A stretch of 59,007 nucleotides of DNA, counting the filler, from Rhizaria sp. SCN 62-66 (taxonomy: Eukaryota), in the NCBI GenBank assembly GCA_001724265.1. It is 5 parts of 5 records of this genome, joined end to end, with 100 filler letters (N's around TTAATTAATTAA, not from the genome) between each part and the next. Parts side by side here need not be neighbours in the genome. Positions count along the whole stretch, not along the records: positions 1 to 12,325 come from MEDY01000552.1; 4 more parts are not named here. One strand, written 5' to 3'. A program made the position numbers and the translations under genes. This document shows, piece by piece, positions 981-56,556 of the stretch; within the stretch, counting starts at the first letter, position 1, and each line of letters begins with the position of its first letter. The notes under the pieces are model-generated. The model did no database searches. It was not told the origin of the DNA and saw only the letters and a list, made by a program, of their open reading frames with translations.

Positions 981-2010
981 TCGAAACTTTGCGGAATATG
1001 ATCAAATAGGACCAGTAAAGCCCAAATATCGGCGAATGTATTGTATGCTCACAAACATGCGTGTACGACGCCGTTGGTTGGGCATTTACTTCCTTGGCGT
1101 AATCCTATTATGGCGCTGCACCCAAATACCTTGTTTTACAAGGTGCTGGGCACGCGCGGTGCACACAACGACTTCAATGTTACTACTTGAAGTCACGGCT
1201 CCCCGCCTTTTCGGGGAGTTTATTCATGAATGTCGCCTTCACTGTGAGGAGACTGTTCATTGAATAAGCAGGCAAAAAAGGCAAAAAATGGGCGGAACAG
1301 ACCATTAGGACAACTGAAAAAGCCGCTCAGTTGTCATTGAGTGCAGACAGGCTTCATTATAGTTATGAGTCGTGTCACGCTCTCAGCGTAAATACTTGAC
1401 AAGAACAAAGCTACTCCTCGTATTATCCCGCATGGAAATGTGGGAGAAACACGCGTTTCATATCCTTCCGATAACCGCAAGAGCGGTTATGGCTCGATAA
1501 GAAACATGTTCTATGTCCTTTTTGAACCGTACATCAGTACAACTTACGATGAGACAACAGCCAACAAGCTGTTTCTCACGTGTTTCGTCAAAACCAACCA
1601 AAAATCAATGTCAATCAAAGATGAAGTTTAAGAATCATATTTGAATATTACGAAGTCACAACAAGACTCGTCAGTACAATTACCCAAAATTAAATATAAC
1701 CGAATACAACAGACCAAGATATTAGCCCAACTGACCCAAACACAATCGATACAATATCGCAGGAGTCAGTTCCAGTCGCCCATGGTTTAGTGAGATTACC
1801 CTTTGAATCCAGGAAACGTTAGTTTAGTCGCAGTTCGCTGCCACCCAAGTGTCCAGACAAAGCTGTCAGTAGACGCTCGTTCATAATGTCATATTTGTGC
1901 CGTAACTTCAATTAGATTAGAGACAAATTTAATGCTACAGAGTAATTATGTGCATAAGATACACTGATACAATTTGGTACCTGCTGGCCTTCACTTCTGA
2001 GCTCACAAAT

Positions 2011-5000
2011 ATGTCTTCATTCCTCCCTCGCATGTTTCGCGTCCCCAGCTTTCGAAGGGAGTCAGACCAGCTTCTGGACATCATGTCAACTCTGCCCACG
2101 CAAGGCACGCCTTGCAATCAGGCAGACGAAACTGATTCCACGGGTAATGCCGCGTTCTTGAACGTTGGACCACCATTGTCCTCCGCTCCTTCGCCTGCCC
2201 CGGTTTCGCACACCACTGTTCCACTGCCCGCAGTTGATTTTGTTCTCCCCAACGCCACTCTCTTTGCAAATGCGTTGCACCAGACTCTTGCCGAGCATAG
2301 CAAGGCCGAGAACAGGACCAACCCTGTCACCACTGCACCTCAGCTGCCGCCGCTGGCGCTGCCGTCCTTTGACGAACGCGCGGGGCTGTACTTGGCGCAC
2401 ATGCAAACTGCGGACCATCTCGAGATGCAAACGTCGTTACGTACAACACGCATTGCAGCAGAAGCCGCGTCCGGCGCTGCACTACCAAGTGAGCTTCTTC
2501 TGGCGCTGCAGCAATGCATTAGTCGCAGCGCTGCCGAAGCAAAGGCAGAGGAGACTGTCGCACCCGTTGGCGCTGGCGCAGTCAAAATGATCAGCGAAGA
2601 TGACTACTTTGCAGAGTCTAGTCTCGAGAACGGAGCTCAAGGCAAGAAGAAGTTTTCTGCCGCTTTGGCACCGTCACGCAGTGACGCGGATGTTCAAGCC
2701 ACCATTAACGCAGACAGTTTCAAGCACATGATTATGGCCTCTCGCGCCCACACAGATAGTCTGCATGCTCAATAGAACACGACGCAAGACACCAAGACTA
2801 AAGTTAACAAACCTGCTCTTGCAGCAGTTCCGGCCCACGTTAGCAAGAAGGCGAAGAAGGCTAGTCGTGCTAAGGCGCGGCTTGATGCTATCAAATCAAC
2901 CCCGAAAGATCATGGAGCTGCCCCGCTATGCCCAGTTACGCGCGTCCCGTTGCTGTCATGCCCGTCCCCTACCTGCGCCTGTGCATGGTTACCCTGCAAT
3001 GCGACTATCACCCTAACAGTCGCGGGTGATCATTCAACCATCTACGGCGCGCGCACGCGCGACACAGCGGCCACCACAGATCTCACTCCCAATGTGCAGA
3101 GCTTTCGTCGCGCAGAGAATGACGCTGACGGCAGTGACGTCGATGATGATGACTGCCTCGACACCAGGAGCAACTACAGCGGTGGCTGGGCTTGCACCCC
3201 AGGTTTGGGGATTGACGTCAACGCGGCTGCGCGCCGTGGCGCGTTCCCCGGTGCCGGTGAGTCGGGTCCGCCGTCCCGCAGTGCCACGCCCGTCGCCGGC
3301 GGAGTGTCGCGGTCCGCAGCCGCTTCGCCCGCGCCCGCGTTGCGTCGCGCCATGATGAACCTTCCAGAGCCTGCGGCAGCGCCCGCACCGGCGCCGCAGG
3401 GGCCGTCAATGGCAAAACAGTTTTCTTTACTGTCGGCTGCTGCTGCTGTTAACGCGCGGAAGACACCGCCTGCCTCCGCAACGCCCAAAATAACGCCTTT
3501 GCAGACGCCAACGCCTGTTTTGCCGCGGTCGCCGTCGATGGCCGAGAAGCTCGCCCTAATGTCCAAGAACAGCAAGCCTTCCACTCCCGTTGTGGCAACG
3601 CCGCCGCTGTCGCAGAAGCCTAAAGAGACGTTCCCCGAGTTGTCGTCCATTGTATCGTCGAAGAGCGGCGCTGCAAGCCCGGCGGGCCGCTCGGTTCCCT
3701 CATCGCCTACACTGCCGCCTCGCTCGTATACAACCACTCCAACCGGACAGGTTACGCGTGTCTCTGCGACTACGACCAAGACGGCGGTTGCACAGCCGGC
3801 GTTTCCCACGCTCGCAAGTGCAGCGCCTGCGATTCCGCGGGCAACGACGCCGGTTGCTCGGCCTGGTTTGGCTGCTGTGTCGATGCCCGCGCCGACTGCA
3901 ATCTCGCTGCCGTTACCTGTCGCCGTTTCTACGCCTGCTCCTGTCGCTGTGTCGATGCCTGCGCCTGTCGCCGTCTCTAAGGGAGCGCCCGTTGCCGTAT
4001 CTAAGACCTCAGCTGCTGCACTGCTTACCAGTACGTCTTGCCCGCCGTCGCCTCGCACCATGTCCCCCGCTCCTGCTGCTGCTCTGAAGCCAATGACACC
4101 AGTGAAGGATGTGACACTGACGCCAACTACGCTCCGCCTTTCTCGCGACAGTTTCAGGCGGAGCGATCTCCCGATCGACCTGATTGGCGCGTCGTCAGAG
4201 CCTCTGGCCGGCCGCGTTGTCTGGCTCTCGCTGCCGCTTGCCACTGCTGGAGGCGGCTGGGAAGAGACAATCTCGCGGGTCTACGCTGGCAATAAGGATC
4301 CCAGCGCGGTTGACTCTTGCGAACGCGCTCTTGACGCAGTCACTTCACTGGCGCTGCCCGCAATGCCGCCGCCGTACCCTGCGGTCACTGGTTCGCGCCC
4401 CACTGTCAACGCATTCTGGAGTCGCCTTTAGCGGAGTGCGCACTGCAACAACATGAGCGCCAGTGGCGACTCGGCCTCTATCGTTTCTGTAAACGCGGAC
4501 GCTGACGCCGTGGCTTGGACCTCCACCGACGCCTACGCTGCCATCGCTGCCAGTCCTGCAACGGAGACTTCTCCCAATCTACCTCCTGCGCAGAGCGCGA
4601 ACGGTGCACCACGTTTGTCGGCGCAGTGCGGCTGCAGCACGGCGAGCTGCTCGTGGAACCCCTTTGCACAGCCGCAGACTCAGAACAGCGGCTGCAGCAC
4701 TGTGTTGCACTCTGCAGGCATTTGTGCGCCGCTTAAGTTACCGCCGCAGTATGCGTGTCCGCCGCCGCTTCCGTGGGCGCCGCTTGAAGGCACTATTACC
4801 AATTCCAAGGTTGACAACGGCACTGGCAAGCTTACGCTTACGATTGCCGTTACTGCCCCGAATGCATACCTCCGCGCGCTCAGCGTTGCGGCATCAAAGA
4901 AGCCGACATCTACGACCAAGAATGAACTTACGCAGCTCAGTCTTGCCCGCGCATCTTTTGTTGGACATAATATCAACAGTACTGTCACTATGCCAGACGG

Positions 5001-8000
5001 TGCTACGCCGGTTACAACGTGTTCTGCGTTGTGCGCTCACTGCGCGCACCTGTCTGTAATGTGGACTGCGGCGATGGGCACTACAATGGCCGCGCCTTTG
5101 GTTCCTGGTGACAAGGCTGCAATTGAAGCGATTAAGTCTGCTAATGCAGACGTCCCCTTTGCTCCGTGGACGCTAGGCTCTGGGCTTTTGGTTGAGTTTG
5201 GTGCGTCTACCAGTGTTTCCAATCGTGTTCGCGCCGCGCTGAGCGCGCTTCAGCCCACTGGTGATAACACCGTTGAGACTCTTGGTCGCGGCAATGCCGC
5301 GGCAGGAGATAGCAAGAAGCACCAGAGCGGCGACGTTGCGAGTGCAGTGGCGGCAACTCTGGCAAGCATTAGTGCAACTACCGAGGTTGGCGGTCCAGCA
5401 ACAGACTTGGCTCTCGACGTTGCGCTTGCCACTTCTAGCCACAGTCTTGCTGCGCCAGTGTCGCCACATGATAAAACGCCGTTCCACGCTGCAATTGAGT
5501 CTTGGAGTGAGAAATCTAACTCCCAGTCCGACAAGAAAAGCAAGAACAACAACATGTTTTTCAATGCGTTTACCGCAATTCTTTCCGCTCTCGCTGGTTT
5601 TACGCCTTTGGCGCAGATATCGGAGCAGGATAACAACGAGACCGTGCTGAGCGTAATTGAGCTGGTCCAACAGCCGTGGCTATGCATCTGGCCTGTGGCG
5701 CGCCGTGCTGCGTTTAAGCTGCTGCTTGAGCCTGCGCTGCGCACGGTCTTGCCGCCGCTGTTGCGTGCAGTTGCAGAGCGTCTGCGTGGGATTGAAACTA
5801 CAGCTGGAAATGCGGCATCGATCAGCACAGACATGCTGTCGCTTTTGCCCGCCGACGTGGCGACTGTAGGCAAGGCTGCTGCGCTGGCTGTAATGCATGC
5901 TCTTACAGAAGCTACGCTTAAGTGCCTTAAGGGCGGTGTCATCGGCCGCACTGTGGTGACAGTCCCACTTAGTCTCAGCACATTGCCCTCAGTGCGCAGC
6001 GGTGCCAAGAGCATCAACAAGACTTATAACGACGTGTTCTCTTTCTCTTTTACGTTGTCGGGGCTTGGGACGCTAATGCGCGCGACCGCAGCCGTTTGTA
6101 CGCCCAACAGCACTGCAAACTGTGCTGATGACATGGGCGTGTTTTTTGCGCTGCTGCGGTGCGTATTCCCCCCGCAAATGCAGCTTACTCTCGACGGATC
6201 AAGCACTAACTGGACTAGTATCTTTTTGGGCATTAACTCGCCGATGGGTCTGAGCAAATCTGGCATGCAAGCGCCCGACTTTGCGCTGTCTAAGGCGCTT
6301 TACAGCTCACTTGTTGAGCTTCAGCGCGAGTCGGGCACTTCAGTGCCGCCTCCGCCCGCGCTTGCTCCCTCAGCCACCGCAATTGCTTTAGAAGACAACA
6401 GTAATGAGAACACGATTGCGAAGGTGACCGCTAAGGCAATGACTGACATGTGGATTCCTTATTTTAACGCTCTCGGTCTCAACCCTTCGCAGCGCACCGC
6501 AGTGAGCAACGTTCTCGCTGAGCCGCAGCTTACAGCCGCCTCGCTTTCCGCTGCCGTGGAAGGCGTAACTGACGATGAAACTGCGGATCTCATGCGCGCG
6601 CCCTCGCTTAACGTAATTCAAGGCCCGCCCGGCACTGGCAAAACGCAGACTATCTCGGCCGCAGTGTGGCTTTGGATCCGCGCCGCACGTCTGCGCGCAC
6701 CTGTCTGCGGTCCCGATGGGCGTGCACGTGTTGCGCCCACGCGCGTGCTTATCTCGGCGTATTCGAACGCTGCGGTTGATCTGCTTACGGACCGCGTGCG
6801 CATTGTTGCCGCCAAGGCCGACGCTGCAGTGCGTGAGGAGATGGCGGCACACGCGACCAAGGCGCTTGCGGCAGTCGCAGAGGTGGGGGCTACGGATGCT
6901 ACTGGTGGGGCTCATGGCGCTGGCACGCCACTGTCGCTGGTGTTTCCTTCTCCAGAGTTGGAGCTGGCGCCACTGCGTGTAGTGCGCGTTGGCAAGCGGT
7001 TGAACAAGTACAATGCCGTGTACCCGTGGCCCTTCTGGCTCCGCACTTCATCTGTAATCACCGACGCACACACGCTCACTGGCGGGCTTCCGGGCAAGAA
7101 CGCGCTCGGATTTGTGACTTTGCGGCGTGTGGCAGATCTCTGCGAGAAGTACTTGCTAAACGAGGCTCGAGCGAGCAAGAATGCGCACAAATTTTTGAAC
7201 TCAGCGCTGCATGTGTATACCAAGAACGGTGTGTACAAATCTGCGCAACACGTGCTTTCGCCGGCCATAATTGAGGCGCATCTTTGGGAGACATCTCGTG
7301 CGGCAACAACACAAGGTGAGCTTGCACTGTTGTCGACCTCTATCGAGCTGCAGGTTATCAATTGTCACGACATTGGCGCGGAGTACCGTGCAGTGCTGCT
7401 GACAATCCACTGCGCGCGCAAGGCTGCACAAGAGGCTGTCAAGGCTGCCGTGGCCGGCAAAGAGAACTATGCTTTACTGCGTAACACTCTGAAAAGCATG
7501 AACATGAAGGGTGGAGAGAGGATGCTTGCGAATCACTTGTTAGACATTTATGGCTATACTGAGAACAATGGGCCGTGGAGCACAGGTGACCCAGCAATGT
7601 TTCACCATTGGGACGCCGTAAGCCAAGCCGTGTTCACCCCTTCCGACTGGTTGCCGCTACCTGTCATTGCTGCGGTGCTAGGTCAGCTCAGCGTCAGCTT
7701 TGGCCGCAACTCCGCCTAGTCCGCAGCGCCTGTCGGCTCAACATTTGTGCGCCTGCCTCAAATCCCCTGCGATGATTGGCAGGGTCTTCCCAAAAACGTT
7801 TCGAGTCGTTTCGTGTGGGCCTTGGTACTGTTCCAGCTTGTTGACAATATTCAACACAACTTAGTCCTCTGCGGCAAAGTTTTCGACTACACCAAGTTAC
7901 AAAAAGCACTTCTGCAGTCAGCCGATATCATTTCCGCAACATGTGTTGGCAGTACACAGCCAAACATCCGTCGAGGCCGCCCTGCGGCACGTCAGGCTGC

Positions 8001-10557
8001 TCTTAACGCCGCTTGCAATACGCAACAACTTGCGATTCTTGCAGCGCAAGAGCCTGTTCCGCGCAGTGTTGCCGCCCAAGCGCAGCTCGCGCGGCGCAAG
8101 GCTGCGCTGTCACTCGCGCAGGACCTTTGTGGAAGCGAGAGCGGTGATGCTGACAACTTTGACGATGGAAACGCGAGTTTCGATGAGCGTAGCGACGATG
8201 ACAACAGTGACTCGGACAGCGATAGGAGCGAGACAAAAATTCCACATCAGCACGACTTTTCGCTTGTGATTGTTGACGAAGCGTCTCAGGCGCCGGAGCG
8301 CGCGGCGCTGCTGCCGCTTGCCACAATGGCCAAAGTAAAGCGCATGAATAAGCACGCACTGCCGCGCGCAGTGTTAAAGCTCGAAGTCAAGGCGGCGCGG
8401 GACGCGCTTCAAACCGCGCAGAAGAAGTTGGATGATGCCGAAAAGCCTGCAGACTCTACAAGTGCTGTTCCTCAAAGCGCCGAGGTTGACTTGGCTGAAC
8501 AGCGTTTAAACAATGCTGTTGACAAGCTTGCTGCTTACATTAACAGTGTTGTTGCTGAAGCTAAAGCCGAGCGTAACGCTATGGAAAATGAGAGCGATGA
8601 AACCGTTGTTGAGAGCGCTGACTTCAAGCCTGAACGTGCCGAAAAGTGCGCTGATACGGTGCCTGACACGGGTGATATTACTGCAGATGTTCTGATTGTT
8701 ACAGGTTCCGAGTGTGATAATTTATCTGAAGGCAGCCAATGCGATGATGCCGCTGGCACCGGCAGAGTGGATGGCTCTGACTACGACGATGAAGACGATT
8801 ACGATGACGACGAAGAGAACAAAGACAGTGAGTACTCAGACGCGTCTGACGAGTCCGAGTTCGAGTTTTTTCCGATGGGCATGGAGGATTACACGGATGC
8901 CGGTCACCACCGCGACGGCAGCGAATATGACAGCGACAGCGACTATAACGACGACTACTACGACGATCTCGATGACAACGAAGATTATGACGCAGCCATG
9001 CTTAACGAAGAGGAAGTCGCAGAGCTGGCAACATTTGTCTCTGTTACTGAAGATGCCGACAAACTTCTTGACGCAGAGCCCAAAGACATCGTGCGTTACG
9101 ACCGAATTGTCGCAACTGAGGAGGGCGGACTTGCCAGCGACGAGTCGCTGTTTACGGATCCCCAGACGATTGCAAAGCTCTGCATGTGGGGCGCGCCGGG
9201 TGTTGGCGCCACAACGCGCGCTGCGTTTGTCGGTGATCACTGCCAGCTGCCGCCCATGGCGGGCGCGGGCTCCGGGGAAGTTGGTATGTTGCTGGGTACG
9301 GACTCGCCGATGTTTGCCCGTCTTGCATGTGCGCCTGCTATGCTTGCCAAGGGCAAAGCTCGGTTGGAGAGCAAGAACGCACGCACTGGCACCGCTACCG
9401 CAACGTCGGGGAGCAGCCTGCGTCTGTTTGTGCCGACTGGTTGCATGCTGCTGCAGCAGCACCGCATGCACTCGACTCTTGCACAGTGGCCGTCGAAGAC
9501 GTTCTACAGCGGCGCACTGACCACGCCGCACTTCATTGACCCGCAGCGCCCGCCTGTGCGTGGCTTTGTCTGGCCCTCTGCTATCCCCGCACCGGCTGCA
9601 TTGCTGCCGATTGTGCCGCCGCACGGGCACGTTCCTGCTCTGCTGATCGACACAAGCGGCGATTTCAGGCTGCCGAAGACGGCGGCGACTGTGGCATTGC
9701 GTGACTGGCTGAGTAAAGATGCTAATGTCATCACAATTAGTGGCGGCACTTACCGGAGCGCTGCGGTTCAGCATCGCGGCAGCTGGGTCAACACACCCGA
9801 GGCGGCACTGGCTGTATTGCTTTCGACACACGCTGTTCTGACGCAAAAGCGCGCGCTGCCGCGCAGTACAGACGCTTCTGTTGCTGTGGACCGGCTCAAG
9901 TCACTCTTGAGCCGCGGCTCAAAGCGCGCTGTGAATAAGTGCAACGCCAATGCGACTGTTGAGGTTGATGATCTGCCCCTAAGTGTCGGCATTGTCACCC
10001 CGTACGGACAGCAGCGTAATGTCGTGCAGCAAATGCTGCGTATGCTCAACATGAACGATGAGATGCGCACTGCGATGGAACAAGCGCTCGCCGGTACCGC
10101 GGAGACTGACTGTGCGCTTGACAAGGCGATTGAGGTCAACTCAGTCGATGGTTACCAAGGCCATGAGAAGGACTTGATGATCATGTCGCTTGTGCGCTCC
10201 AGGCAGCCCACCATCGGCTTCGTTAAGGACCGCCGTCGCATGAACGTACGTCAACATATCTTGACTGATTGGAATATTTCAACATCTATAATTAATTGTG
10301 CATTTTATCAACTTGGTTTATTGCACGACTCACATGCATTCTTTTTCTTCTTTCTGTCGAACTGATTTTAGGTGGGGCTCACACGTGCGCGCCGCGGGCT
10401 CATCATCCTGTGCGACTGCTCTACGTTTGCGCCAAGGCGCAACTCAGAGGAAGAGTGCGTTATCGACCGCACTGGTGAGTGGTCATCATATGTTCGGTAT
10501 ATGCGGGCGCAGGGCTTAGTGTTCCCCGCCGAAGCCCTCTACACTCTTTTACAGTGA
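2011..10557 (+). CDS. UPF1/DNA2/NAM7-like superfamily 1 helicase, about 2800 aa; exons 2011-10245 and 10372-10557; in-frame TAG at 2773, 4429 and 7717
   Basis: Four same-frame ORFs are separated only by single TAGs. Motifs in order: LNPSQ, IQGPPGTGKT, AYSNAAVD, VVRVG, [TAG 7717], ADIISATCVG, VIVDEASQ, VGDHCQLPP, HRMH, VTPYGQQ, SVDGYQGHEKD, and RRMN|VGLTRAR rebuilt by splicing. Ends at TGA. Inclusion of the N-terminal low-complexity part (2011-4452) depends on TAG being sense. Confidence 0.85.
10246..10371 (+). other. Spliceosomal intron (126 nt, GTACGT...TTTTAG) within helicase motif VI
   Basis: AT-rich with a pyrimidine tract; removal restores RRMNVGLTRAR. Confidence 0.93.
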
Positions 10558-12326
10558 ACACACTGTGTTACAGCGCAAGCTTCGCGCTGACGTTTATTTT
10601 TACTCTTTAAGAACAGAAAAAGAGTTTCAGAAGTATTTAATACCAATCTAACCTCATGATCTAATGTCATAACGGTATCGCATCGAACACGTATATTACC
10701 TTTCAAGCACACATGATTGTGTTGCGTTACATTTATAATGTGTTACCACAAAGCACATACGCTTGCTTTGTTTTGATTGAAATAAAAAACACTCACAACA
10801 TGTCCCTGTAATGGTTCAATGGTTCCGCGCAAACAACTCTGCCGCGGCTGCTTAACATTTGCACATGCGTAGGCTGACCATGTTGCAATTGTTACACATC
10901 ATGATGCGACTTGCACTTGCTGTAGTGACTGATGGTAAGATCAGATACGCAATCACAATACATTGCGGCGATATTTTTGCATATATTTAACCATTGCAAA
11001 GTCTCGCGTTTTTCCGTGATGTTTAGTGCGCATAACCACTCGATAATCATTTTTAGCCACACATGTTTTTTTGTGACACGTCGTTTGCTCGAAACAAGAT
11101 GAAGCAAATCCTCTGAGTTCTCTGTAGTTCAAACCGACATACGTGATTGTATTATAGTTTTAACAAAGTCATACGTTCGAGATGTGATTGATATATTCGT
11201 TGAATGCTAGTGGACGCTCTAAAATCTCAAGGACGTTTCTACGCTTCATACTAAGCTCGCGCGCACACTTTTCAACTTGTTGACGTCTCATCCGCTGTCC
11301 AATTCAGATACAAAGACAGTGTTGTAGACATTCCGCTTCACGTGAGCACACACCGAATGTCTTACGCTTTACTTGCAGACTTTCACACCGCTCTTGCGGA
11401 TGCGATATCGACGTCACCCAGACTTGATGCGTTGAACGCACTTAAAACCACGCTGCAGGACACGGAGCGTTCGTTGAGGCTCTGATCGCGACCGCGACGT
11501 CGGTTTAATCTGCACTGTCACGCGCTCTTATGATGAGTGACATGACAATGACGACGTTGTTTAAGACCTGGATTCACCAGCGACTCATCCGTGTCACTTA
11601 CACGATTTACAAAACAAGATTGCATGTAGATGTCGTTACGTCTGTGAATGCTGTGGCAATTGCGTTCAGCTCTATGTTTGTTACATGCGTATCATAAGGG
11701 TCTTTTTGTTACGCAGAGCGACTGTAAACGAGATATGCACGTTATGAAACGCGTTTTATCAAAAATAACCACAATTTGGCCGAATAAAGCTGTCTTATAT
11801 ACTATATCGAGCTCTTAAATGAGTCGACGCTTATACAACATACGATCCACATAGTATTTGAACTCCAACAACAAACCCTTGACATTGGTTTGTGGTCGAG
11901 TGGCCACACTAGCGAGCCCGCAGCTCAGTGCTTGGTCCTGGGAGGCAACCTCGCAACCTGGCCCAGACCATTGATTCAACGCCGTAGAGAATATAATTGC
12001 ACCATAGCCTAGGAACGCGTCTTTAGTATTTGTAATTTTAATCTTGGTGGTATATCTTGTCGCTTAACGCGAACTGTAGCTCGTCCATCTTAGTCGAGCT
12101 CGCGAATGAGCTTGACGCCAGCCCTTCCACACCAGCATCTATATCTCACATCAGTAGCGTGAAACACGAAATTAGAGCATATTTTCATATTTTTCAAGCA
12201 TCAATAACATCAAACCTTCTTTATTTTTTCTATTTCCTGTAGCTTTCTTACCTCTTCTCAAACAAGTAATCAGGCCCCACTCGCAACAGAGCACCCTTCC
12301 TTCAGCCCCCGTGATCCCCCCCCCCN

Positions 12327-12425
12327 NNNNNNNNNNNNNNNNNNNNNNNNNNNNNNNNNNNNNNNNNNNTTAATTAATTAANNNNNNNNNNNNNNNNNNN
12401 NNNNNNNNNNNNNNNNNNNNNNNNN
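12327..12425. other. Artificial contig spacer (Ns with TTAATTAATTAA at 12370-12381)
   Basis: The same stop-in-all-six-frames linker occurs in four gaps of about 100 nt. Confidence 0.95.
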
Positions 12426-13041
12426 GGTGAGGCGCTTGCGGAGGTGCTCGTTGATCGAGTTGCGCTTGAAGCAGCGGCGGGCACGGGAGTGGACCATGCC
12501 GATGAACTCCTTCTCGGTGAGGTCGATCATCTTCTCGGCCTCGACACCGCGGAAGAAGTACTGACGGAAAGGCTTCTTGGACTCAGACTGTAGTGGCAGC
12601 AACGGAAAGCAAAGCAAGAGAGAACAAATCAAGCACGAGGGCGTTTAATGACGTGGCATTGGAGGCGGGGGGCATCAAAGCGCAAGCGGACGGACGGGAG
12701 AATCGAGAGTGAGAGCGAGCACAGTCGAGTAGTGGCGGGAAGGGAAACAGAAAAGAGAAACGAAATGGGTAAGAGAGGGGTCGGGGGAAGGCCAGGAGAA
12801 CAGTGGGCGGAAGGATAATGTCTCATAATACACGGTGGCGGGTGCTATGCGCTGAAATGCGCCAAGCGGGGCGTGTGCGGTCGGTGCAAAAGGTCGGCAG
12901 AGGGGCGCTCCGGTTAGAGCGGTCTCGAGCGACTTTGCCAACGTCCTGTCCTCGGCCAGATAAGCACAGTAGAAAATGTAGACATGATAGAAAGCGAGAA
13001 TAGTGGGCGGCCAAGCACCAAAACAAGCGGCGACGTACCAT
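12426..13041 (-). CDS. RPS15: 40S ribosomal protein S15 (uS19), 3'-truncated by gap; ATG-only first coding exon 13041-13039, intron 13038-12588
   Basis: Splicing ATG|GTACGT...CTACAG|TCT gives MSESKKPFRQYFFRGVEAEKMIDL...HSRARRCFKR, matching the eukaryotic S15 N-terminal pattern (FRxFxYRGV...RARR). Confidence 0.85.
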
Positions 13042-13593
13042 ATTGAATCAGCTCGTCTACAAACAGAGGAATCAACAAGGTCAGCTGCGGCAACATGACT
13101 CCCCCGAGGACCCAGTGCCCAGAGCCCAGCTCCGCCCGAAGGAACTAAGGGCCAGCGCACCCCTTACAGCTCACGGTCACTTTCACCTGCCAACCCTGTT
13201 TTATCTCCCCCCTACTTTCTATATTTTGCATTTAGGAATTATTTTTTGGTTATGAAATCATTGATGTATCAAAATAATCTCTCACTGATGTTAAAACCTA
13301 TTGAGTGTGATTAATGCTTTGGTATCCTTAATAATAAGTCGTGCTCACGGTCACTTCGACTGGGTAGACTGGTCTATTGTCTGAGGAGTAACAAAAAAAC
13401 AGCATTTGCGAGTTGAAATAGAAGCAGGTGATGACTAAACTAGAGTAGAAGAGTATCCAACAAAACATGTATTCAAAATTCTAGAAAATCGCGTCTCAAA
13501 ATAGTTCACACCAACCAGAAGTTCCTTCCTTAAGACAAAAGCGCCCGATTGTTCATTCTGACAAAACAACAATAGCAACATCAACATCAACAT

Positions 13594-16500
13594 TTACCAC
13601 TGGTCCTGCTCGGCCCTGCGCGCGCGACGCACCTCCGCAACCTTAGCTTTCTTGACGGCGGCGTAGTCAACCGCGCCGGGCGGCAGATCCGCGCGCGCAG
13701 GTAGCACCGCAAGCGCGGGCGCGGCGCGGGCGAGCCTCATCTCGGGGCCCTGAACCCACCGCCATTGCACCATGGGGGCGGTCGCGCCGCCGGGGAGAGC
13801 GGGAAACTGGAGGAACTCGCAGGTCTTGAGTCCCGTGAGTCCGTCGGTGCCGCCAACAACGATGACGCGGTCACCGTGGCCGGCTAAGCCGGAAGCAGGC
13901 ACGAAAGCAGCGGACGCCTAAGAAAGAGGGAACCAAGAGTTGTTTAAGTTTACACGGAAGACAATAGGTGAGCTATCTGCATTAAAACCGTTCGAATATA
14001 TACATTAGTGTCAAGTTAACAAAAGATCGTTGTTTTAGTTCGTTGTTTCGATCTCAACATACCTGGTAGCGGGGACGGCCGAGCTCGGGACCGCGGACCC
14101 ACGTGTCCCTGAGCACATCGTACACTTCGACAGAGCGGTGATACTTCTGCCCGTCATAACCGCCGATGACGACGATGTACCCGTTGCACATAGCGGCAGC
14201 GTGACCCTCGCGCGCGTCGAGCAATGGCGCGATCTGGCTCCACGTGTCGGTCGCCGGGGTATAGACTTCGCAGTTGCGGAGGCGCTGGAACCCATCATAG
14301 CCGCCCATCACAAACACGCGGCCGTCTCCGGCAACAACGGCGGCGTGCCCGTCGCGCGCCTGCGTCATATTCGCCACACTAAACCATGCATTGACGCGCG
14401 GGCAGTAGGTCTCAGCAGCGGCGAGACGCGCGACACCGTCAAAACCACCACACACAAGCAGCTTTTCGTCGCCGGTGACGACTGCGGTGTGCCAGCGGCG
14501 CGGAGTGTGCATGCTGGGCAGCGGCACCCACGAGTGCGAGTGCAGATCAAGCGCCTCGACGGTCGAAAGCACCGTCGCGCCCTCACTGGGTCCGTCCTCG
14601 GCAGAATTCGCAGGTGCATTGGCGGTGGCGCCGTTCAGAGTGCTCGAAAGCGACATGGACAGGGACTGCGCAAACAGCCCAGAGGACGCCGCAAATGAGC
14701 CGGACTGACTGAACGAGCCCGGCGCGTCGGCGTTGTTGTAGTTCGCAGCGGCGCGGGGGCCAGACGCGCTGGTCAGCGCGCGGCGGCCTGCGACCGCAGC
14801 AGGAGACGCGGCCGTCAAAGCAATCGTGTTGCCGAACGCGGTGACGTTGCCGTTGGTGTTGTTGCTATAGCCACCAGGGTTCGCAGAGGCAATGCGGAGC
14901 TGGTCGTTGAACCCGCCCGTGATGATCACGCGGTCCTTGAGCAGAGCCGCCGCCGCGAACGCGCGCTTCTGCAGCAGCGGCGGCGACGCAGCCCAGGCTC
15001 CAAGCCCAGCAGCCGCTGTGAAATCAAGCGCCTCGGCAGAGGACAGATACCCGGCGCCGCTGCCGCGGTCGCAGCCGCCCACGACGACGACCTTGGCGGG
15101 GCGCGCGGGGGCAGTAGCGACTGTGAGCGGCAGGGAAAGCTGGCCCGCACCCCAGCCACCGACGGCCCTTAGAAAGACCAAGTACTGCTGCGCGGGCTGG
15201 AGGGCCGTAAGGGTGAACTGCGTGCCACGGAGGCAGCGCGCAACGCCTTCGTCGGCCGCTGGCGGGACGGTTCCGATGAAAGGCGCGACGCGAGAGGGCG
15301 GGGTCGGGCGGAGGCGGACCACGACGGCCGCGCCCGCGCTGCCACCGGCACCGGCGCCGGGGCCGCCGCTGCCGCCGTTGCCGCCGCCGTTGCTTTTGCT
15401 GTTGGTGATGTGGTGGCTGGGGTCGAGCTGCGACAGCGGCGGCGCGGCGCCGGTGCCCGCGAGCGCGGGCGCGCGGTGCGCAGTGGCCGTGGCCGCGACA
15501 GGGGCGTCTGCGGGGAGCGAGGTGGCGATGGGCAGCAGAGGCGCGATGTACCCGGGACCCTTAGCTGCAATAGACTTGTGGAACGCGGAGCCTTCACGGC
15601 ACCAGATGAGCTCGTACATTACTGGCAGTGCCGGCAGCGGCCACGAGTCGCAGTCTGTGACGCCCTCATAGCGCGACGGCGCCAGTGACTGAGCGCGCGA
15701 GACCAATACTGAGGACTGCGCCGCGGCTTCAGAGCGCACCGCCTCGGCGAGAGCGCTGGCGGCGAGGCCCACGGTTGACCCGCAGTTGCCGCCGCCGTGG
15801 CCGCCCGCGCCGCTACTGTTACCGCTCGTTGTGGTGGTGGAGTAGAGCTCGGCGGCCGGAGACGGGATGTCGCTGCGACCACACTGCACGGCGGTAACCC
15901 ATGACACGGACGTGACGGTACCCGTGGCCTCGGCCGCTGTGAACGCGCGGCCCGCGGGGGCGGAGGCGGCAGCGCAGGCGGCACTGGCCGGAGACAGCGA
16001 GTGCGGGGGCGGCAGCAGGCGGGAGGCGGACAGCACGCTCACACCGCTGACGCCGCTATTATTATCAGCAGCCGCAGCAGCAGCGTTGCCGTTGCCGCTG
16101 GCGGGACTCGAAGGCGCGTTGCCGCTGCCGCTGACGTGGGTAGTGCCGGAGCTACCCAACTTGTTGTTGCTGCGGCGGGACGCCGTGGTGGTCCGGGGCC
16201 GCGCCGCAAAGCCTGTGCCGACGGGCGGGTGAGAGTGCGGCACCGCGGCGACGTCGCCGGGATACTGCTGCGCCGCCGCGGCGACAGCGAACGAGGGGGC
16301 GGCGCCGGGGGTCACGGAAAATACGAAGGGAGCGGCAGAGCTCACCATGAGCGTCGCGGCGCCCGCCGAGGCGGCGGCGACGGCGCCTGTCGCAGCGTCG
16401 CCGGTGACGGCCGAGAGAAGACCCGTCGATGAGAACAAAGAGGTAGTATCGATGGCTGCAATCCCATTGGCCGACGCAGTAGCGGAGGCCGCGTCGCCAA

Positions 16501-18482: not shown

Positions 18483-20537
18483 TTAGACGGAGATATGCAC
18501 ACTCTGCTGCACACGAGCCGCAGTTTTGCGGCTCTTGCCAACAGGACCCATGTCGCTCTCGCTCTCGTTGGCGTCGCCGCCCACGATGCCGCCCATCATG
18601 TTCTCATCGTCGTTGTCACCCAGCACGTGGAGATACGCCGAGCGCGCCTGAGGCCGGCCGATATAGCTCGCCACCGCAAAGATCGTGAGCGAAACAGCGC
18701 CGTCGGCACCGAGACGCGCTGCGACGGCGGCGCCGCGGTTGGCCATCACTTGCTCCACGAACGCCAGTGTCACCGTGCCAAGCACGATGGGCGTGAAGAG
18801 CTTCGCGTATGATTTGAGACGCGCCATGTTCATGTCGCCGTTGTTCTTGGTTGTGGCGGCAGCGTCGGATGAACCCACAGTGTCGTCGCTGTTAATGGTA
18901 CCGCCGGCATTGGCTCCGTTGAGCGCGTTGTCGCGGTCCATACCGCTGGCGGTAAGCTTGAACGACAGGAGCAGCGCGGCCGCAGACAGAAGCGCGACCA
19001 GGATGTATCCTGTCTTCCACACAATTGGGGAGACGACGGCGTCGCTGATAGACAGCAAGATGCGGCCGCCAACAGCCATGAAGACAGAGATGAACAGCAG
19101 TGTGTTGGTCTCGAACGACGTGTCGGAAAAGAGCGGGCTGATGGCATTAAAGCCGAGGAAGCCCGCCACGACCATGATGGCGACGGAGACGTAGTGCAGA
19201 GTGCCGGCGACGGCGATGAACACGATGTCGTCACTGAAGCGGCGCTGCAGCACGTATCCGAGAGTGAGGAAGAGCAGGGAAGCGGCCTTGATGCCGATAG
19301 CGGCGGCAAGCACCGTGTGGAAACGCGTCGCATGCTGGACGTTGGTGCAGATAAGCGCGAGGAAAACAATCAGGATCACGGTGCAGAGGCCGAAGAGCGC
19401 GGAGGAGAGGCCGATGAGGGCGTTGATATCCTCGCTGATGGCGTCACTAGCGGGGATCGGGAGCTCGGTCTCCGGGGGAGTAGTGCCGTCGGTACCAGTG
19501 CCGTGCTGACCCTCGCCATTAAGGTCACCGTCCTTGACGGAGGTCGCGTCATCGTCGTCATCGTCGTCGTCGTCGTCGTCGCCCTTGGAGTCCTTGTCAC
19601 CGGCGGCGGCGGGGTCAGTCGTCGTCGGGGTCTCACTGTCAGTCTTGGTCGCGTCCTTATCATCCTTAGGAGTGTCCGTGATGGGGGTGGTTGTAGTGGT
19701 GGCAGCGTCGTCGTCGCCGTCGTCGTCATCGTCGTCGTCAGTGCCGGCCTTAGCGTCCTTGGCTTTCTGGGCCTCAGCCTCCTCCTTTGCCTTCTTCTCG
19801 GCAGCCTCCTTGGCCTTCTTGTCAGCCTCCTCCTTCGCCTTCTTCTCAGCGTCAGCGGCAGCGGCGTCGGTCTTCGAGGCGTCGCCCACAGGCGCCGCGG
19901 GCTCGGCCGGCGTGACCGGCGGTGTGACGGGCGGAGTGACCGGCGCGGGGCCGGTCTGTGGGTTGGGAGGGTTGGAGACGTAGTAGCCCTTCTCCATGCG
20001 GCTCGACAGAGTGAGCGATACGCCAGAGTCGGGTTCACAGTTGGACAGATAGACGTAGAACGTGCCGCGGCCGAATGTGCGGGCAAAGGACGAGACGCCC
20101 CACCGCGTCTGCGATGCGAGTGTAATGCGCTGCACGAGGGTGTTGTCGCGGGTGAGCTCGTGGTTGCAGTCCTCGGTCTAGGTAATGAGCGCAGACTTGA
20201 TCAGGATAGCGAGGCGGAAACGGTACTGCTCCTCGATATCGGGGGTGTACATGTCCATGGCGACGTTGGAGACGTTGAACTCCATGCTGCCGCCGCCGGG
20301 GGGAAAGCGGAATGTCTTGAGTAGCACTGCCGAGCCTTCAATGTCAGTGAAGGGGAAGGACCGCAACGGGGATTTGGAGACCGCGGCCACGATGTCGGGG
20401 TCCACGGGCCCCGCAGCGGCGAGGGACAGCGAGGAGCTGGCTGCCAGCGCAAGGAGCACGCAGAGGGAGTACGTGAGGGCGAGGACGACCGACGACAAGA
20501 CCTGCCACAGGGAGCGGGAGCGGGTTGGTAAGGCCAT
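18483..20537 (-). CDS. GPR107/GPR108/TMEM87-like (GOLD-domain seven-transmembrane) protein; in-frame TAG at 20180-20178
   Basis: Signal peptide, luminal region (FRFPPGGGSMEFNV...FYVYLSNC), charged insert, then about 7 hydrophobic helices including HTVLAAAIGIKAASLLF. The two ORFs share a frame and are split only by TAG. Ends at TAA. Confidence 0.7.
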
Positions 20538-21483
20538 TCTGCGGACCTAGAAACGCAGTGTAGTCGGATGAAATAATGTCAAAGTGAAAAAAAGATATAT
20601 ACAAGTGAGTTTCTGTGGCTGAGCATGACATATGTTTCGCTGTAATGAGGATCGCGAGCGCAGATGAAAAAGGAGATAAGTCTGACAAAAGGTATTGTTG
20701 TTTGAAGCTGCGTAGTTTGTTTAGAGCAACCGTTCGCAAGGAAAGACTCATTCTCGGCAAACAAATTAAAAGGGTGTAAAGTATCATGCCGTGACTGTAG
20801 AGATACGAAATCTACGCAACAAGAAGATCATAACTCGGCGCATACAGTCGCACAAAAAAGACGGAGCGGCGTTGGGGGGGTGCATGCTGAGCCACGACTT
20901 GCCACCCTAAATGAAACTTCATATCCGCACTTCTGCGAATAATGCCTCAAAAAATTACGTTGAATACACAGTTTGCAACCAAGAAACGTTGCTCTTGATT
21001 TCAATGATCGTAAAATCCACCCACAATAGCATTTCTTTCTAGGACACTCATTGCTTCAAACAAGCTTGCACACTAACGTTTGCATTTGCCACCATTTTTA
21101 CGAACCCTCACCTCGGATCAGCTCCGCGACCAAGGACGGAGAGGCCGGCGGTTAGACAAGACAACGGTGAAGGGTCTGCTGCCGATGTGCATTGCAAAAT
21201 GTAGGCGCGTGCAATAGTTGTGCAGTTTAAGTATGAGATGAATTAGCTCACATTCTCTTTTGTTGCGTATTACTTAGCCCTTTCTTTGCTTGTTTTCACC
21301 CAGTTATTGCAGGCCGCGCGACTCTCCCAAACCGATCGCTGTTCACCTGCTCGCTGCACGAGTTGCAGTCCGTTCGCCACCTCTCCCACCAATCCTTGGT
21401 GTGATTCGGTCTTTTTCTTCATCAGTTTGATTTCCGCCGCGCGTTTTACTCCATCCGGCCTGCGCCCGCGCTTTCCCTCGGCC

Positions 21484-24079
21484 ATGTTCAGCACGCGCGA
21501 GGACGGCTCAATGATGCCGTCTCGCTCCGGCGCCGTTTTGTTCTTCCTGTGCACGTTCTTGCTCGTCACCGTCGCCACAATTTTCATCCACTCGGGCCGC
21601 GTCGACGACGCCGTGTTCCGCGTTCTCCTCACCGCAGACAATATCGACGCTAATCTTCGCGAGTCACTGACCGCGGCGGAGTTTGCCCGGTTAAAACGTG
21701 CTGAGGCTGCGAGTTCCTCTTTCGCTGAGGTCAGCGACGACGACGTCGACGCGGAGTCCTCTGGCTCGGGCACCGAGGCCAACGCTGACGCTAGCTCCAC
21801 GGGCGCCGGGGCCGGCAATGGCACTGGCAAGGTCAAAGGTAAAGGCAAGGGCAAGGGCAAGGGCAAGGGCAAGGACAAGGACAAGGACAAGGACAAGGAC
21901 AAGGACAAGGACAAGGGCAAGGGCAATGGCAAGGGTAAGGGCAAGGGTAAAGGGAATGGTAAGAGCAAGGATGACAAAACCTCCGGCTCTGGCTCTAACC
22001 CTTCCTCTGGCTCTAGCTCCAGCTCTGGCTCCAACCCTTCCTCTGGCTCTAGCACCAGCTCTAGCTCTAGCCCTGGTTCTGGCTCTAGTAGTGGTGGCGT
22101 TCAGCAGCAGCCGCCGTCTCGGCCCGCGCCGATCGTCCTGCGTGGCCGCCACGTCTTCCTCACTTCAAACGCCACCAACGTCGAGTACACCTCTTTACCG
22201 CACGCGCTATGCCCGTCCTGCTTTACCCCCAGCGCCTTCGCGGCCGCCAACGAGCCCCAGTGCACGCTGCCGCCGCCTCGCTTTCCTACTGAGCTGGGCG
22301 TCGGCGCCGGTGTCCACCCTCTGCTATGGCACTCGCACACCGGCGTGTACCGCGCCCCCACGGCCTGGGCCGGTTCCGCCTTGGTCCGTCATGAGAGCGC
22401 GCGCGTCGGCCGCGCCATCTGTCGCCACTGCCTTGGCTCCGTGCCCTGCCGTGGCCCCGCGGGCGCGCCCCCGCACCCGTCGCTTGACGCTGGCACCGCG
22501 CGCTTTGAGGCCGATTTCATTCCGCGTCTCGACGACGCAGGTCGGCAGGTCAACGGCTGGGCGTCGGTGTCCGGCACGCACTACCTCGTCAACCGCTGTG
22601 TCGAGCCCATCGACGCCGTGTACACGTGGATCAACGGCTCCGACCCCGGGGTTATCGCCGCGCGTACCGATGCCCGCGAGTCCCTGGCGGCTTATGTTTC
22701 GCCCGTGCCCGGCTTTCCGCCTGCGGCGCCCGACCAGAACTCGCTGGGCAACAACCGTTTCCGCGATTCCGGCGAGCTGCGGTACTCGATGCGCTCTCTG
22801 CTCAAGAACGCGCCGTGGATTCGCCGTATTTACCTCGTCACTTCTGGTGAGGCCCCGGTCTGGCTCAATACCAGCCACCCAAGCGTCGCCGTCGTGCCCC
22901 ATAAGGACGTCTTCGCAGAGCCCAATCGGAACGCGCCGTCGTTCTCGTCGAACGCGATCGAGTCAGCGCTGCACCGCATTCCAGGCCTCTCTGACACGTT
23001 TGTGTACGTCAACGATGACGTGTTCTTTGCTAAGCAGATTAGCCAGGGCGCGTTTTGGTCGCCTGCGACGGGGCTTTTTCTCGAGCGCGCTGCTTGGAAG
23101 CTGCAGAGCTGCAATTCGGGTTGTGACACACAGTTTCTCGGCGACGGCGTCTGCCATCCGGCCTGCATGACCGAGGCGTGCCAGTGGGATCTGGGCGACT
23201 GCGAGCGCAACTACCTCCGCGCGCCCGCTCCTTGGGAAGTTTACGACATGCTTTTGGCCGGACTTCACCTATTTAACGCTGACGACCGCCGAAGCGCCAG
23301 CTCGCCGCATGCCGATCGCCCCCGTGACTGAGGCCGAGGTTCTGTGGTCAACGATCCCCGCTTCAACCACCGACGCCGCGCCTCAACAGACCGCGCCCGG
23401 TGTCAACATCGGCCGATCCTCCTCTTCCGCCAATGGGGCCACGGCTGCGGTGCCCGCCGGCTCCGTCCACGGAAGTTACGCGCCGTTTTACTCCGCGGCC
23501 GCGTTTAAAGCCGGCTGTTACGACCCCCTCGTTGCCGCGGCCAAGGCGGCCGAGGCCGAGATCGCCAAGACGAAGGCGCTTGTCGCCGCGCTAGAGCAGG
23601 ACGTTCCACCTACTGCCGACTCCATCAACACCGACACGAATCCTACTAACGCTGATTCTGCCGACGGCACGACCGGGACCGCGACTGCTACTGACGTCCC
23701 TGTCGGCGACTCTACAGCTACTCTCGATGGTGCTGCTGCCGCTAGTGCAATTGGCATTGATATCGGTGGTGGTGACGCAGCGCCGACGACGAGCGACACT
23801 GCCAGCCTAACCAGTGAACAGATTGCTGAGTTGTACCCTCCTCTGTCCCCGGACGCGCCTCCCGAGCGCACGCGCTCGCGCGCACACCCGCTGCTGCGCC
23901 GCCTCGCCCACTCCGGCACATTCGCCTTCGCCCGCGGGAATCTTTGGAGCAACAACACTTACGAAGCAGGCATCCCCGCTCCCGAGACTGATTTGCTATC
24001 AGAGCCCGATTACTGCGCTCCGGGCTGCCCCGCCGCGTGGACCGGCGACGGCGTCTGTGACAGCGCCTGCGACGTCGAG
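21484..24079 (+). CDS. Stealth-family GlcNAc-1-phosphotransferase (GNPTAB-like) with LNR/Notch repeats; apparent +1 frameshift near 23251-23255; 3'-truncated by gap
   Basis: N-terminal TM anchor. Stealth CR1 IDAVYTWINGSDP. CR2 RFRDSGELRYSMRS...APWIRRIYLVT...FSSNAIE...IPGLS...YVNDDVFF. LNR repeats CNSGC...GDGVCHPAC...WDLGDC and, in the next frame, CAPGC...WTGDGVCDSAC. Confidence 0.88.
21826..22092 (+). repeat. Coding tandem repeats: (GGCAAG/GACAAG)n encoding GK/DK, followed by TCTGGC/TCTAGC Ser-Gly repeats
   Basis: Directly visible hexamer arrays in the stem region of the Stealth protein. Confidence 0.9.
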
Positions 24080-24179
24080 NNNNNNNNNNNNNNNNNNNNN
24101 NNNNNNNNNNNNNNNNNNNNNNNTTAATTAATTAANNNNNNNNNNNNNNNNNNNNNNNNNNNNNNNNNNNNNNNNNNNN
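24080..24179. other. Artificial contig spacer (TTAATTAATTAA at 24124-24135)
   Basis: Same linker as the other gaps. Confidence 0.95.
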
Positions 24180-33838: not shown

Positions 33839-34498
33839 GGGGCGCGCAAGGGGGAGTCGGGCGCGACTTGAAGCGTTGCAGAGCCAACTTGAAGAAGTAA
33901 GATTGCTTTGTAGGTATAGGTTTTGTGGGGTTGAAAAAGGAAGTCTATTAATAAGATTCGATGTTGAAACGTTAGATGCGTTGAAATAAGTGTGTTTACG
34001 GTGAACGGCGTGCGTATATCGCCGTATAAATTCAGGCGCCAGTTCACGCAAAGCGATTCCACCTCAATCAAATAGAAAGCAAGCTAAAAGTTGTTTGTGG
34101 TCACGCAGCTTGAAAGAAAACAAAAGAACACAATTTTGCAAAGATACAAAAATACAACTAGATAACGACGAGTGACTCTTGCAAGAGATATATATAATTC
34201 ATTGTAGCCATGACACGTTCTGTTGTGTGCAGAGGCTAAATAGGATGATACAAACAAATAACAAAAACTCTAAGACATATTTTTAACGTGAAAGGAAAAA
34301 ATAGAAAACTAACAGAAATCAAACTACGCAGTTCATAACATCTTATGAATTCAGATTGTCGATTATTACGCATCAGCGAGAGTACTTTCAGCTTAAAAGA
34401 TAACCCCTATGTAGCGTCAACTAAAAAACGCGAATTCGCGCTTTTTTTGCGACTTTGGCGCACTTTCGTAGAAGTTATCAAACTACGTGGTTTATTTA

Positions 34499-34598
34499 NN
34501 NNNNNNNNNNNNNNNNNNNNNNNNNNNNNNNNNNNNNNNNNNTTAATTAATTAANNNNNNNNNNNNNNNNNNNNNNNNNNNNNNNNNNNNNNNNNNNN
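34499..34598. other. Artificial contig spacer (TTAATTAATTAA at 34543-34554)
   Basis: Same linker as the other gaps. Confidence 0.95.
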
Positions 34599-37500: not shown

Positions 37501-38301
37501 CAATTGTAGCAGACAGAAGAATTGGATCATATAAAGTTATGGATTTGGATGATAACGCAAATTTGCTCGAGTGGCGCATCCTGTCTCTCGTCACAGTCAC
37601 CAGCGGCAGTAGCGGTACATCAAACCCAGTGCCAGTAGCAAAACGAGGCGCGAAAAAAAGTAGTCAAAACTGACGCTACAAACACCATGTACAGTAAAAA
37701 TGAGTATACACGATGTGCACCGTCACGGGTCGACACTCATCGCTTGATATGGGACAGCTTAAAGAGGGAATACATACAGATGACAAGATAAAGGAACAGG
37801 CAAACACAAGCAAACTTACAAAAAACAAAAAAAAATAAAGGACAAAAATAACATCAGGGACAAAACACGGGAATCCTGCATTGTGCATTATAATAGCTGG
37901 CGCACATGAACAGGGAGAGAGGGAACATATGGTATGGACTGTGAAAAATGAGTCGCCGTAAAATTAATTTTCATCAAATATTGTGAGAAAACGCGCAAGT
38001 GCACACAAAGAGGAAGTCTGCAACCCACAGAGTCGTTTAATCAAAGCCTGTTTGTTTCTTACAGTATTCGAGTCAATAGATTGGTGTAAAACAATATCGG
38101 GGAACACAAAAATTTAGAATTTAGAGTGAAAAGCACGCACCTGCGTAGCTCAGGTAGCATGAGTTATTCAAAATGAGTGAAGTTTGTGCATACACACACG
38201 CACAGTCACAAAAGGATGCTGCAAAGCAATACTGTCATGACCGGTCGGAGTTGCACACTTAATCAGGCGCGATTTGAGTGAGTGAATGAGTGATGCGCCA
38301 C

Positions 38302-48670: not shown

Positions 48671-48671
48671 A

Positions 48672-48771
48672 NNNNNNNNNNNNNNNNNNNNNNNNNNNNN
48701 NNNNNNNNNNNNNNNTTAATTAATTAANNNNNNNNNNNNNNNNNNNNNNNNNNNNNNNNNNNNNNNNNNNN
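48672..48771. other. Artificial contig spacer (TTAATTAATTAA at 48716-48727)
   Basis: Same linker as the other gaps. Confidence 0.95.
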
Positions 48772-56158: not shown

Positions 56159-56556
56159 ATGTCTTGGGCATGGAGCAACGGCTCCGCGCCTCCAGAAGCT
56201 CATCAAAACTCTTGCGATACGTGTGGGATTCCAATCTCAATCAACAGTCGCTGCATGGTATGCCTGCTTCAAAGCCTTGATGTTAGTGGTCAAGAATTTT
56301 ATGAAAACTGGTCTTATGTCGCGAACGGTCCTCCTCCGCCAGCTGATGAAGAGCAGCATACAGCATCAGCAGAGCACGATGACAACGCCTCCCAAGCAGT
56401 CCCGCAAATGAATTTCGTTGTCGATCATACCGCAGTCGACGAGCCTCGGGACAAAAACACATTCCGGGATGACAACCAGCACAGTGGGGACAACGAACGC
56501 GGATACGAGCGCGAATACGAGCGGGGGCACGAGCGCGGGCACGAGCGCGGGCACGA

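Follow-up and report, generated by a model that had tools for sequence, protein, structure and literature searches.

There are genetic codes without dedicated stop codons, as in Condylostoma, Parduczia, Blastocrithidia and Amoebophrya sp. ex Karlodinium, and there are codes in which UAG alone has become a sense codon, NCBI translation table 15 (TAG as glutamine, Gln) being of this kind. PMC11687900 gives UAG-only sense codes for an uncultured rhizarian (leucine, Leu), Iotanema spirale (Gln), Protocruzia tuzeti (Gln), Scotinosphaera (serine, Ser) and phyllopharyngean ciliates (Leu or Gln); its ciliates prefer UAA as stop and use UGA least. The subject of the present analysis is a stretch of 59,007 nucleotides (nt) from Rhizaria sp. 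SCN 62-66 (assembly GCA_001724265.1; five parts joined by filler, here called the window) and, within it, a gene for a putative Upf1-like helicase of superfamily 1 (SF1). The first RecA domain of this helicase is interrupted by an in-frame TAG at 7717-7719. We conclude that UAG is most likely a sense codon in this organism.

The helicase gene lies on the + strand, and its likely coding sequence has 2,806 codons (2011-10245 joined to 10372-10554), with TGA at the end. The codons for Walker A (motif I, GPPGTGKT; GGC CCG CCC GGC ACT GGC AAA ACG) occupy 6622-6645, in the frame of position 1933, and those for Walker B (motif II, DEASQ; GAC GAA GCG TCT CAG) occupy 8275-8289, in the same frame; TAG 7717-7719 is the sole stop codon between them. 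In about 2,770 codons, stops number 66 in one of the remaining + frames of the gene and 153 in the other, rates at which 13-31 stops would be expected in the 559-codon stretch from Walker A to Walker B; thus, a stretch of this length with a single stop is not a matter of chance. If TAG is read through, no stop closes this frame between 1933 and 10365. The frame of the two Walker motifs reaches upstream to about 2011 and contains two TAGs besides, 2773-2775 and 4429-4431 (the latter two codons past the block RPTVNAFWSR), on which the first-pass annotation was silent. In the whole of the 2,806 codons there are three in-frame TAGs (2773, 4429 and 7717), no TAA, no TGA and no frameshift. The putative start codon is ATG 2011, near which (at 1983) a contig of polyA RNA starts. 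Exon 1 (2011-10245, 2,745 codons, open when TAG is read through) encodes the N-terminal region and most of the SF1 core. It is followed by an intron of the spliceosomal type (10246-10371, 126 nt, GTACGT..TTTTAG, 32% GC), which contains in-frame TGA and TAG and whose excision fuses RRMN to VGLTRARRG (motif VI). Exon 2 (10372-10557) has 61 codons, including motif VI, and then TGA 10555-10557.

Judged by its sequence, the product is a Upf1-like SF1 (SF1B) helicase. The motifs GPPGTGKT, VIVDEASQ, GDHCQLPP, QQHRMH and VDGYQGHEKD stand in canonical order and are colinear with those of Nam7 (8rd3_A, phmmer), and GLTRARRG (motif VI) is encoded downstream of the intron. Pfam gives 96.9 bits for AAA_12 and 69.2 bits for AAA_11 (cut-off 27 for each); among proteins of solved structure, Nam7 (E 1e-12), human UPF1, Sen1 and IGHMBP2 match best. 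Walker A, which belongs to AAA_11, aligns with the P-loop of Nam7, and Walker B aligns with LIDESTQ of Nam7, FSLVIVDEASQAPER being identical in P0041, one of the related proteins considered below. The sequence ADIISATCVGS (7921-7953), which precedes motif II in Upf1-like helicases, has as counterparts ADVVCCTCVG in Nam7, ADVIAGTCVG in P0041 and ADVVVTTCAAS in P0012; around motif III (GDHCQLPP, 9232-9255), the helicase shares AFVGDHCQLPP with the related proteins P0012 and P0013. The likeness to the Upf1-like SF1B helicases (Upf1/Nam7, Sen1/senataxin, IGHMBP2) thus consists of motifs I, Ic-like and II-VI in the same order, whereas the spacing from Walker A to Walker B is 543 residues here (560 from the G of GPPGTGKT to the Q of DEASQ) compared with about 140 in Nam7, and the N-terminal 1,500 or so residues are without a Pfam family. 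At E<=0.01 no Pfam family was found in 1933-6000 (1,356 residues) and, hence, no SEN1 N-terminal domain (PF12726); because of this, the helicase is classed only as Upf1-like and not as a Sen1 orthologue. A word-based search for homologues of the helicase brought up nothing beyond a fragment from the window itself and SF1 helicases of a generic kind, and an AlphaFold2 model of 6541-8400 (from an alignment of four sequences) had a mean confidence score (pLDDT) of 35 and was unusable. About 300 residues of low complexity, very acidic and rich in D, E, S and Y, are inserted between motifs II and III (8290-9230, +), and most of this insertion is missing from P0012 and P0013.

The first-pass annotation had described Walker A and Walker B as lying in one frame with only TAG 7717-7719 between them, the later motifs and the intron as intact, and the first RecA domain as cut in half if translation ended there. 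The coordinates and the frame were confirmed; ADIISATCVGS, GDHCQLPP, QQHRMH, VDGYQGHEKD and GLTRARRG follow in order, as does intron 10246-10371; and Walker A is upstream of the TAG, with motifs Ic, II and III downstream. The first in-frame ATG after TAG 7717 is 202 codons on, beyond DEASQ, and therefore termination at 7717 would leave two useless halves.

Relatives provide evidence that the reading frame passes through the TAG. When 1.84 billion representative proteins were searched exhaustively with HMMER, 30 of them matched at E<=0.001, including two fragments of the window's own helicase (P0001 and P0014). Beyond these fragments the clear relatives are P0011 (1,478 amino acids), P0012 (2,238 amino acids) and P0013 (431 amino acids), and only two relative lineages were found in the entire protein set. 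The helicase has the N-terminal blocks CACAWLPC, VVWLSLPLA, RPTVNAFWS, CPPPLPWAP and LLQQPWL in common with P0011 and P0012. In P0012 one uninterrupted open reading frame (ORF) takes in the N-terminal region, Walker A, an insertion of similar length and motifs II to IV; because P0012 spans the helicase in this way, the lack of TAA and TGA in the helicase is independent of how the ORF was defined. The alignment with P0013 and a member of its cluster, P0041 (E 2e-29), begins 32 residues ahead of the TAG and extends to motif II; its first 59 columns, TAG column included, are gap-free. Directly before the TAG, the conserved block AVFTPSDWLPLPVIAAVL (7627-7680) is aligned to AVFRPADWLPLPVLTTVL of P0013/P0041; upstream of the TAG AVFTPSDWLPLPV corresponds to AVFRPADWLPLPV, and downstream LPQIP corresponds to LPRVP as part of the conserved blocks LPQIP ... 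SSRFVWALVLFQL (7753-7850), which align with LPRVP ... SSCLVWAATLLEL of P0041 and with SPLIWAVLLSLL of P0012. The conserved VL and LP are separated by 24 residues in both proteins if the TAG is counted as one, with a conserved F (7699) six codons before the TAG and a conserved P (7729) four codons after it. Thus, TAG 7717 is within continuous, conserved coding sequence. The TAG column itself, in a variable stretch, has alanine (Ala) in P0041 and Gln in P0012; the column of TAG 4429 has a gap or glycine (Gly) and that of TAG 2773 has Gly or a gap, and these columns are variable too. As an observation on one of the relatives, P0040 and P0013 each have a longest contig of 85,343 nt and between them span the helicase; the tail of P0040 is rich in K, D and Q and does not resemble the window's helicase, P0013 begins about 30 residues before the TAG position, and this relative probably has an intron or other interruption near that point.

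The alignment also bears on the possibility that an intron removes the TAG from the mRNA. There are three recognised introns in the window, 10246-10371, 28949-29084 and, on the minus strand, 13918-14062; they are 126-145 nt long, have 30-35% GC and start with GTAC or GTAT. Spanning 7717 there are 232 GT..AG pairs of 40-400 nt, all with 51-64% GC, in contrast to the recognised introns. One of these pairs, 7618-7719 (GTAAGC..CCTAG, 102 nt), would take out 7717-7719 and keep the frame, its length being a multiple of three, as it is in 79 other pairs, and no RNA contig lies over 7717. However, any in-frame Val codon before a TAG gives such a pair by chance, and this one, the only in-frame candidate of the GTAAG type, would remove AVFTPSDWLPLPVIAAVL, which is conserved in P0041. 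Because the conserved F and P stand on either side of the TAG with no gap in the alignment, at most 27 nt are left for any intron. An intron over TAG 7717, this candidate included, is very unlikely.

TAG 7717 is real DNA. It is bridged, with 0 differences, by DNA contigs of two other studies (X2 record 6, 6805-7943, and X4 record 16, 7597-12000), and TAGs 4429 and 2773 are likewise bridged by contigs (TAG 4429 by the DNA contigs X2 record 4 and X4 record 14). The sequence is identical in contigs of runs dated 2017 and 2025. By word matching, the stretch is present in bioreactor, wastewater and activated-sludge runs of seven studies, four runs holding at least half of its words; the runs span 2015 to 2025 and one of them is a polyA RNA library. 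A scan of metagenomes for related loci returned only an independent, identical contig of 4,717 nt (L001), the identity extending over query residues 333-559, with a query that starts downstream of the TAG. A sequencing or assembly error at 7717 would find a precedent in an apparent frame change of 1 nt elsewhere in the window (in an EGF-like module near 44910-44920), but given the two bridging assemblies and, for the sequence downstream of the TAG only, L001, its probability is negligible. One further contig, X7 record 30, ends at 7708 and is probably DNA. A read joint from 6646 to 8785 (2,138 nt) was considered as splicing and rejected, as it comes from a DNA run and has only 25 letters on one side; in addition, it has AG..AC at its ends and the P-loop as its left edge, and 2,138 is not divisible by three.

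RNA evidence comes from X5, a polyA metatranscriptome available as contigs. X5 record 19 (2581-3071) spans TAG 2773 and X5 record 17 (354-600) spans TAG 558, a TAG in the protein-kinase gene upstream of the helicase gene, each with 0 differences and unspliced. Other X5 pieces cover 1983-2306, 3985-4215, 6212-6600, 6833-7014, 7282-7535 and 9375-9589, so that contigs flank 7717 on both sides; depth is 0 over 9601-12000, which comprises the last 950 or so bases of the helicase gene and intergenic DNA. The X5 contigs weakly support the expression of both halves of the helicase and the retention of TAG in the mRNA. Loose ends of X5 at 6645 and 6654 start at P-loop words and were set aside as probably deriving from helicases of other organisms. 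The same contigs bear on RNA editing.

In some filamentous fungi premature stops are corrected by RNA editing, and if UAG were altered in the mRNA here (e.g. by A-to-I editing, giving UGG), a system aimed at UAG would fit genes that are interrupted by TAG but not by TAA or TGA. The polyA-RNA contigs over TAGs 558 and 2773 match the DNA, although contigs can hide minority variants, and we regard editing as extremely improbable.

Evidence of a different kind comes from codon usage, scored with a log-odds table trained on five TAG-free genes of the window. In every 150-nt window from 7558 to 7857 the score is positive in the helicase frame and negative in the other two, and the 60 codons on each side of TAG 7717 score +19 upstream and +18 downstream. 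Across the whole stretch there are eight TAGs with positive coding scores on both sides, in six genes (558, 2773, 4429, 7717, 20180, 33073, 50661 and 54193). TAG 4429 scores +19 upstream and +29 downstream. Outside the helicase gene, they are the TAG between DFG and APE in the protein-kinase gene (558-560, +; +46 upstream, +36 downstream), and those in a membrane-protein gene (20178-20180, minus strand; +61 and +35), a coiled-coil protein gene (33071-33073, minus strand; +19 and +27), an Ala-rich protein gene (50659-50661, minus strand; +27 and +32) and the gene at 52786-55176 (54193-54195, +; +29 and +26). The coiled-coil gene has a second TAG (33665-33667), the ninth in-frame TAG of the window, with a weaker signal of -5 and -11; a search for relatives of the membrane protein gave no match. 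The eight gene segments counted, with 9,353 codons, contain eight TAGs, no TAA and no TGA, i.e., an in-frame TAG rate of about 8 per 10,000 codons (about 0.08%). A Sushi-repeat ORF, counted apart from these segments and without TAA or TGA by construction, has no TAG in 1,281 codons. Thus, TAG, and only TAG, interrupts several genes of the window.

This pattern can be set against the view that TAG acts as a stop, with the helicase gene being a pseudogene of recent inactivation or a nonsense allele. For the helicase taken alone, random nonsense mutation would give three TAGs and no other stop with a probability of 0.16, TAG having a 55% share of the single-step paths to a stop. However, the helicase frame has no frameshift, TAA or TGA in 2,806 codons, against 66 and 153 stops off-frame; polyA-RNA contigs lie on the gene; the 2017 and 2025 contigs have the same sequence; and six TAG-only pseudogenes in 59 kb would be needed. 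The probability of eight TAGs would be 0.55 to the power of 8 (about 0.008) by mutational paths, and 0.13 to the power of 8 (about 1e-7) by off-frame stop shares, the off-frame stops in the training genes being in the ratio 40:68:194 (TAG:TAA:TGA). Inactivation of the gene is, in our estimation, highly improbable.

Past 10 of 12 terminal TAA or TGA codons the in-frame score is negative; three of these 12 codons are interruptions (two in introns, one at a frame change), and for two more the true end is uncertain (the TGA of the Stealth ORF and a TAA beside an N run). The gene ends scored are TGA or TAA, TGA being the commonest, and the single end of an exceptional type is that of the gene at 56054-58765 (+), which closes with CAA TAG TTC TAA (58757-58765); this can be seen as a sense TAG one codon before the stop or as a TAG terminator with a back-up TAA. 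The sample of ends is small: if a quarter of genes ended in TAG (an assumed share), the probability of seeing no TAG in about 10 ends would be about 0.06. The tandem end and the rarity of in-frame TAG would both suit an ambiguous UAG, i.e., one that still terminates at real gene ends but is suppressed within genes, either inefficiently or depending on context, as in organisms that lack dedicated stop codons. Against this are the TGA or TAA at all scored ends bar the tandem, the efficient readthrough at three TAGs that a full-length helicase would require, and the nucleotide context around the nine TAGs, in which nothing shared was seen. An ambiguous UAG is therefore improbable.

Taken as a sense codon, UAG can be placed in the following scheme. 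The window would be nuclear DNA of an uncultured, GC-rich, intron-poor eukaryote from wastewater or bioreactor communities, and the nuclear code would have UAG read as an amino acid and UGA and UAA as terminators, so that TAG 7717 would be an ordinary, rare sense codon. Its place would be within an insertion of about 300 residues that is specific to the lineage, yet conserved, and belongs to the first RecA domain, and the ribosome would read through 7717, 2773 and 4429 to produce one polypeptide of 2,806 residues with all the helicase motifs. Presumably, this would involve a tRNA with anticodon CUA and a release factor blind to UAG, as in other such lineages. That the UAG codon is translated, for which the first-pass annotation had argued from the helicase, we infer from the gap-free alignment with relatives and from the in-frame coding signal on both sides of the TAG. 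The same annotation had named an intron over 7717 and an unexpressed pseudogene as explanations that would overturn its argument; the P0013/P0041 alignment, the composition of the GT..AG pairs and the codon scores speak against the first, and the clean frame of 2,806 codons, the polyA-RNA contigs and the sequence unchanged from 2017 to 2025 against the second.

There are also points that weigh against UAG being read as sense, in addition to the 0.16 probability for the helicase alone and the apparent frame change of 1 nt, because of which the assembly must be seen as imperfect. X5 depth is 0 over 7601-8400, so that TAG 7717 itself has no RNA contig; no X5 contig crosses the helicase intron, and X5 may include DNA carry-over. 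The orthologue P0012 has no TAG in 2,238 codons, and the residues aligned to the TAGs differ (Ala, Gln, Gly or a gap) and stand in variable columns, a pattern that points to no single amino acid. A scan of the window for tRNAs found no tRNA gene of any kind, and no eRF1 was noticed among the ORFs scanned in the window. Because one gene ends in CAA TAG TTC TAA, TAG may also be used as a terminator. Finally, three large ORFs with a total of about 4,800 codons have no TAG; at the observed rate this is not unusual, and it shows that the codon is rare.

If UAG is indeed sense, the reassignment may be recent, as TAG makes up about 0.08% of codons and occupies variable positions only, and a relative with about 40% identity has none in its orthologue of 2,238 codons. 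The amino acid could be one other than the known Gln, Leu, Ser and glutamate (Glu). More tentatively, and with rather less than even confidence, we suggest that an undescribed GC-rich lineage, present for a decade in wastewater reactors, has reassigned UAG alone and kept UGA as its main terminator.

The rest of the window is marked as eukaryotic by short, AT-rich GT-AG introns, by Kelch, Sushi, TIG, BCCIP, Stealth-LNR and kinase domains, and by Ala/Ser-rich proteins of low complexity. A search with the BCCIP protein gave one match at 53% identity, and the ESM Atlas gave generic BCCIP clusters only. The protein-kinase gene (3-980, +) is partial; its DFG and APE are separated by an insertion of about 100 residues, which contains the TAG (558-560). 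X4 record 10 (429-870) holds a version of this kinase that is about 6% divergent, with 27 differences, none of the 25 listed being at 558-560. The Kelch gene (minus strand) runs on beyond an apparent TGA by way of the intron 13918-14062 (145 nt, GTATGT..TCTTAG, 35% GC), and its last exon adds one more Kelch-like repeat and ends at TAA 13594-13596. In the gene with Stealth CR1/CR2 and LNR (GNPTAB-like; 20911-24127, +) the frame changes near 23170-23330, and the frame that follows contains another LNR-like motif; no AT-rich intron is seen at this place. On the minus strand, the Sushi-repeat ORF (44873-48715) and a TIG/TRP-like ORF (38302-45315) meet inside one EGF-like module at about 44910-44920 (CNDIDECN.. 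/ ..NNCTKLHGARSQCINTYGGYIC), with a frame shift of one base at GCCAAACAAC; the shift is due either to an indel in the assembly or to a genuine frameshift, in which case the gene would have about 3,600 codons. The N runs (12326-12425, 24080-24179, 34499-34598 and 48672-48771) are paired runs of 44 bases with 12 bases between, and two of them cut ORFs, one in the Stealth/LNR gene and one at the Sushi and Ala-rich genes. The GC-rich genes are separated by long AT-rich stretches (10600-13500 and 34100-38300, 40-49% GC) in which neither a convincing ORF nor a tRNA or Rfam match was found; the Rfam scan of the window as a whole gave no match.

The consequences for annotation are practical ones. Standard gene callers break the proteins of this organism at each TAG, and in the public protein set the helicase is present as fragments of 850 and 40 residues; the proteome is therefore likely to be mis-annotated wherever the organism occurs.

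With respect to known codes, the codes without dedicated stops resemble the present case in having a standard stop codon inside genes, whereas here only TAG is found in frame. The closer resemblance is to the UAG-only codes described in PMC11687900: in-frame TAG occurs in many genes, and TAA and TGA only at the ends. A difference is that TAG is rare here (about 0.08% of codons). In contrast to the ciliates of that paper, the GC content is high (52-68% in most 2-kb windows) and the stop used most often is TGA; large genes are numerous, the spacers are long and AT-rich, and the introns measure 126-145 nt, again unlike the ciliate data. In the literature searched, no report was found of a UAG-sense code in a wastewater eukaryote. 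Reassignment of UAG alone is already a known, rare kind of code change, to which the present case would add. If the reading of UAG as sense is true, a genome that is rich in GC, has TGA as its main stop and has reassigned only UAG would be an independent addition to a short list, and would be a poor fit to the common view that a codon is first lost under AT pressure.

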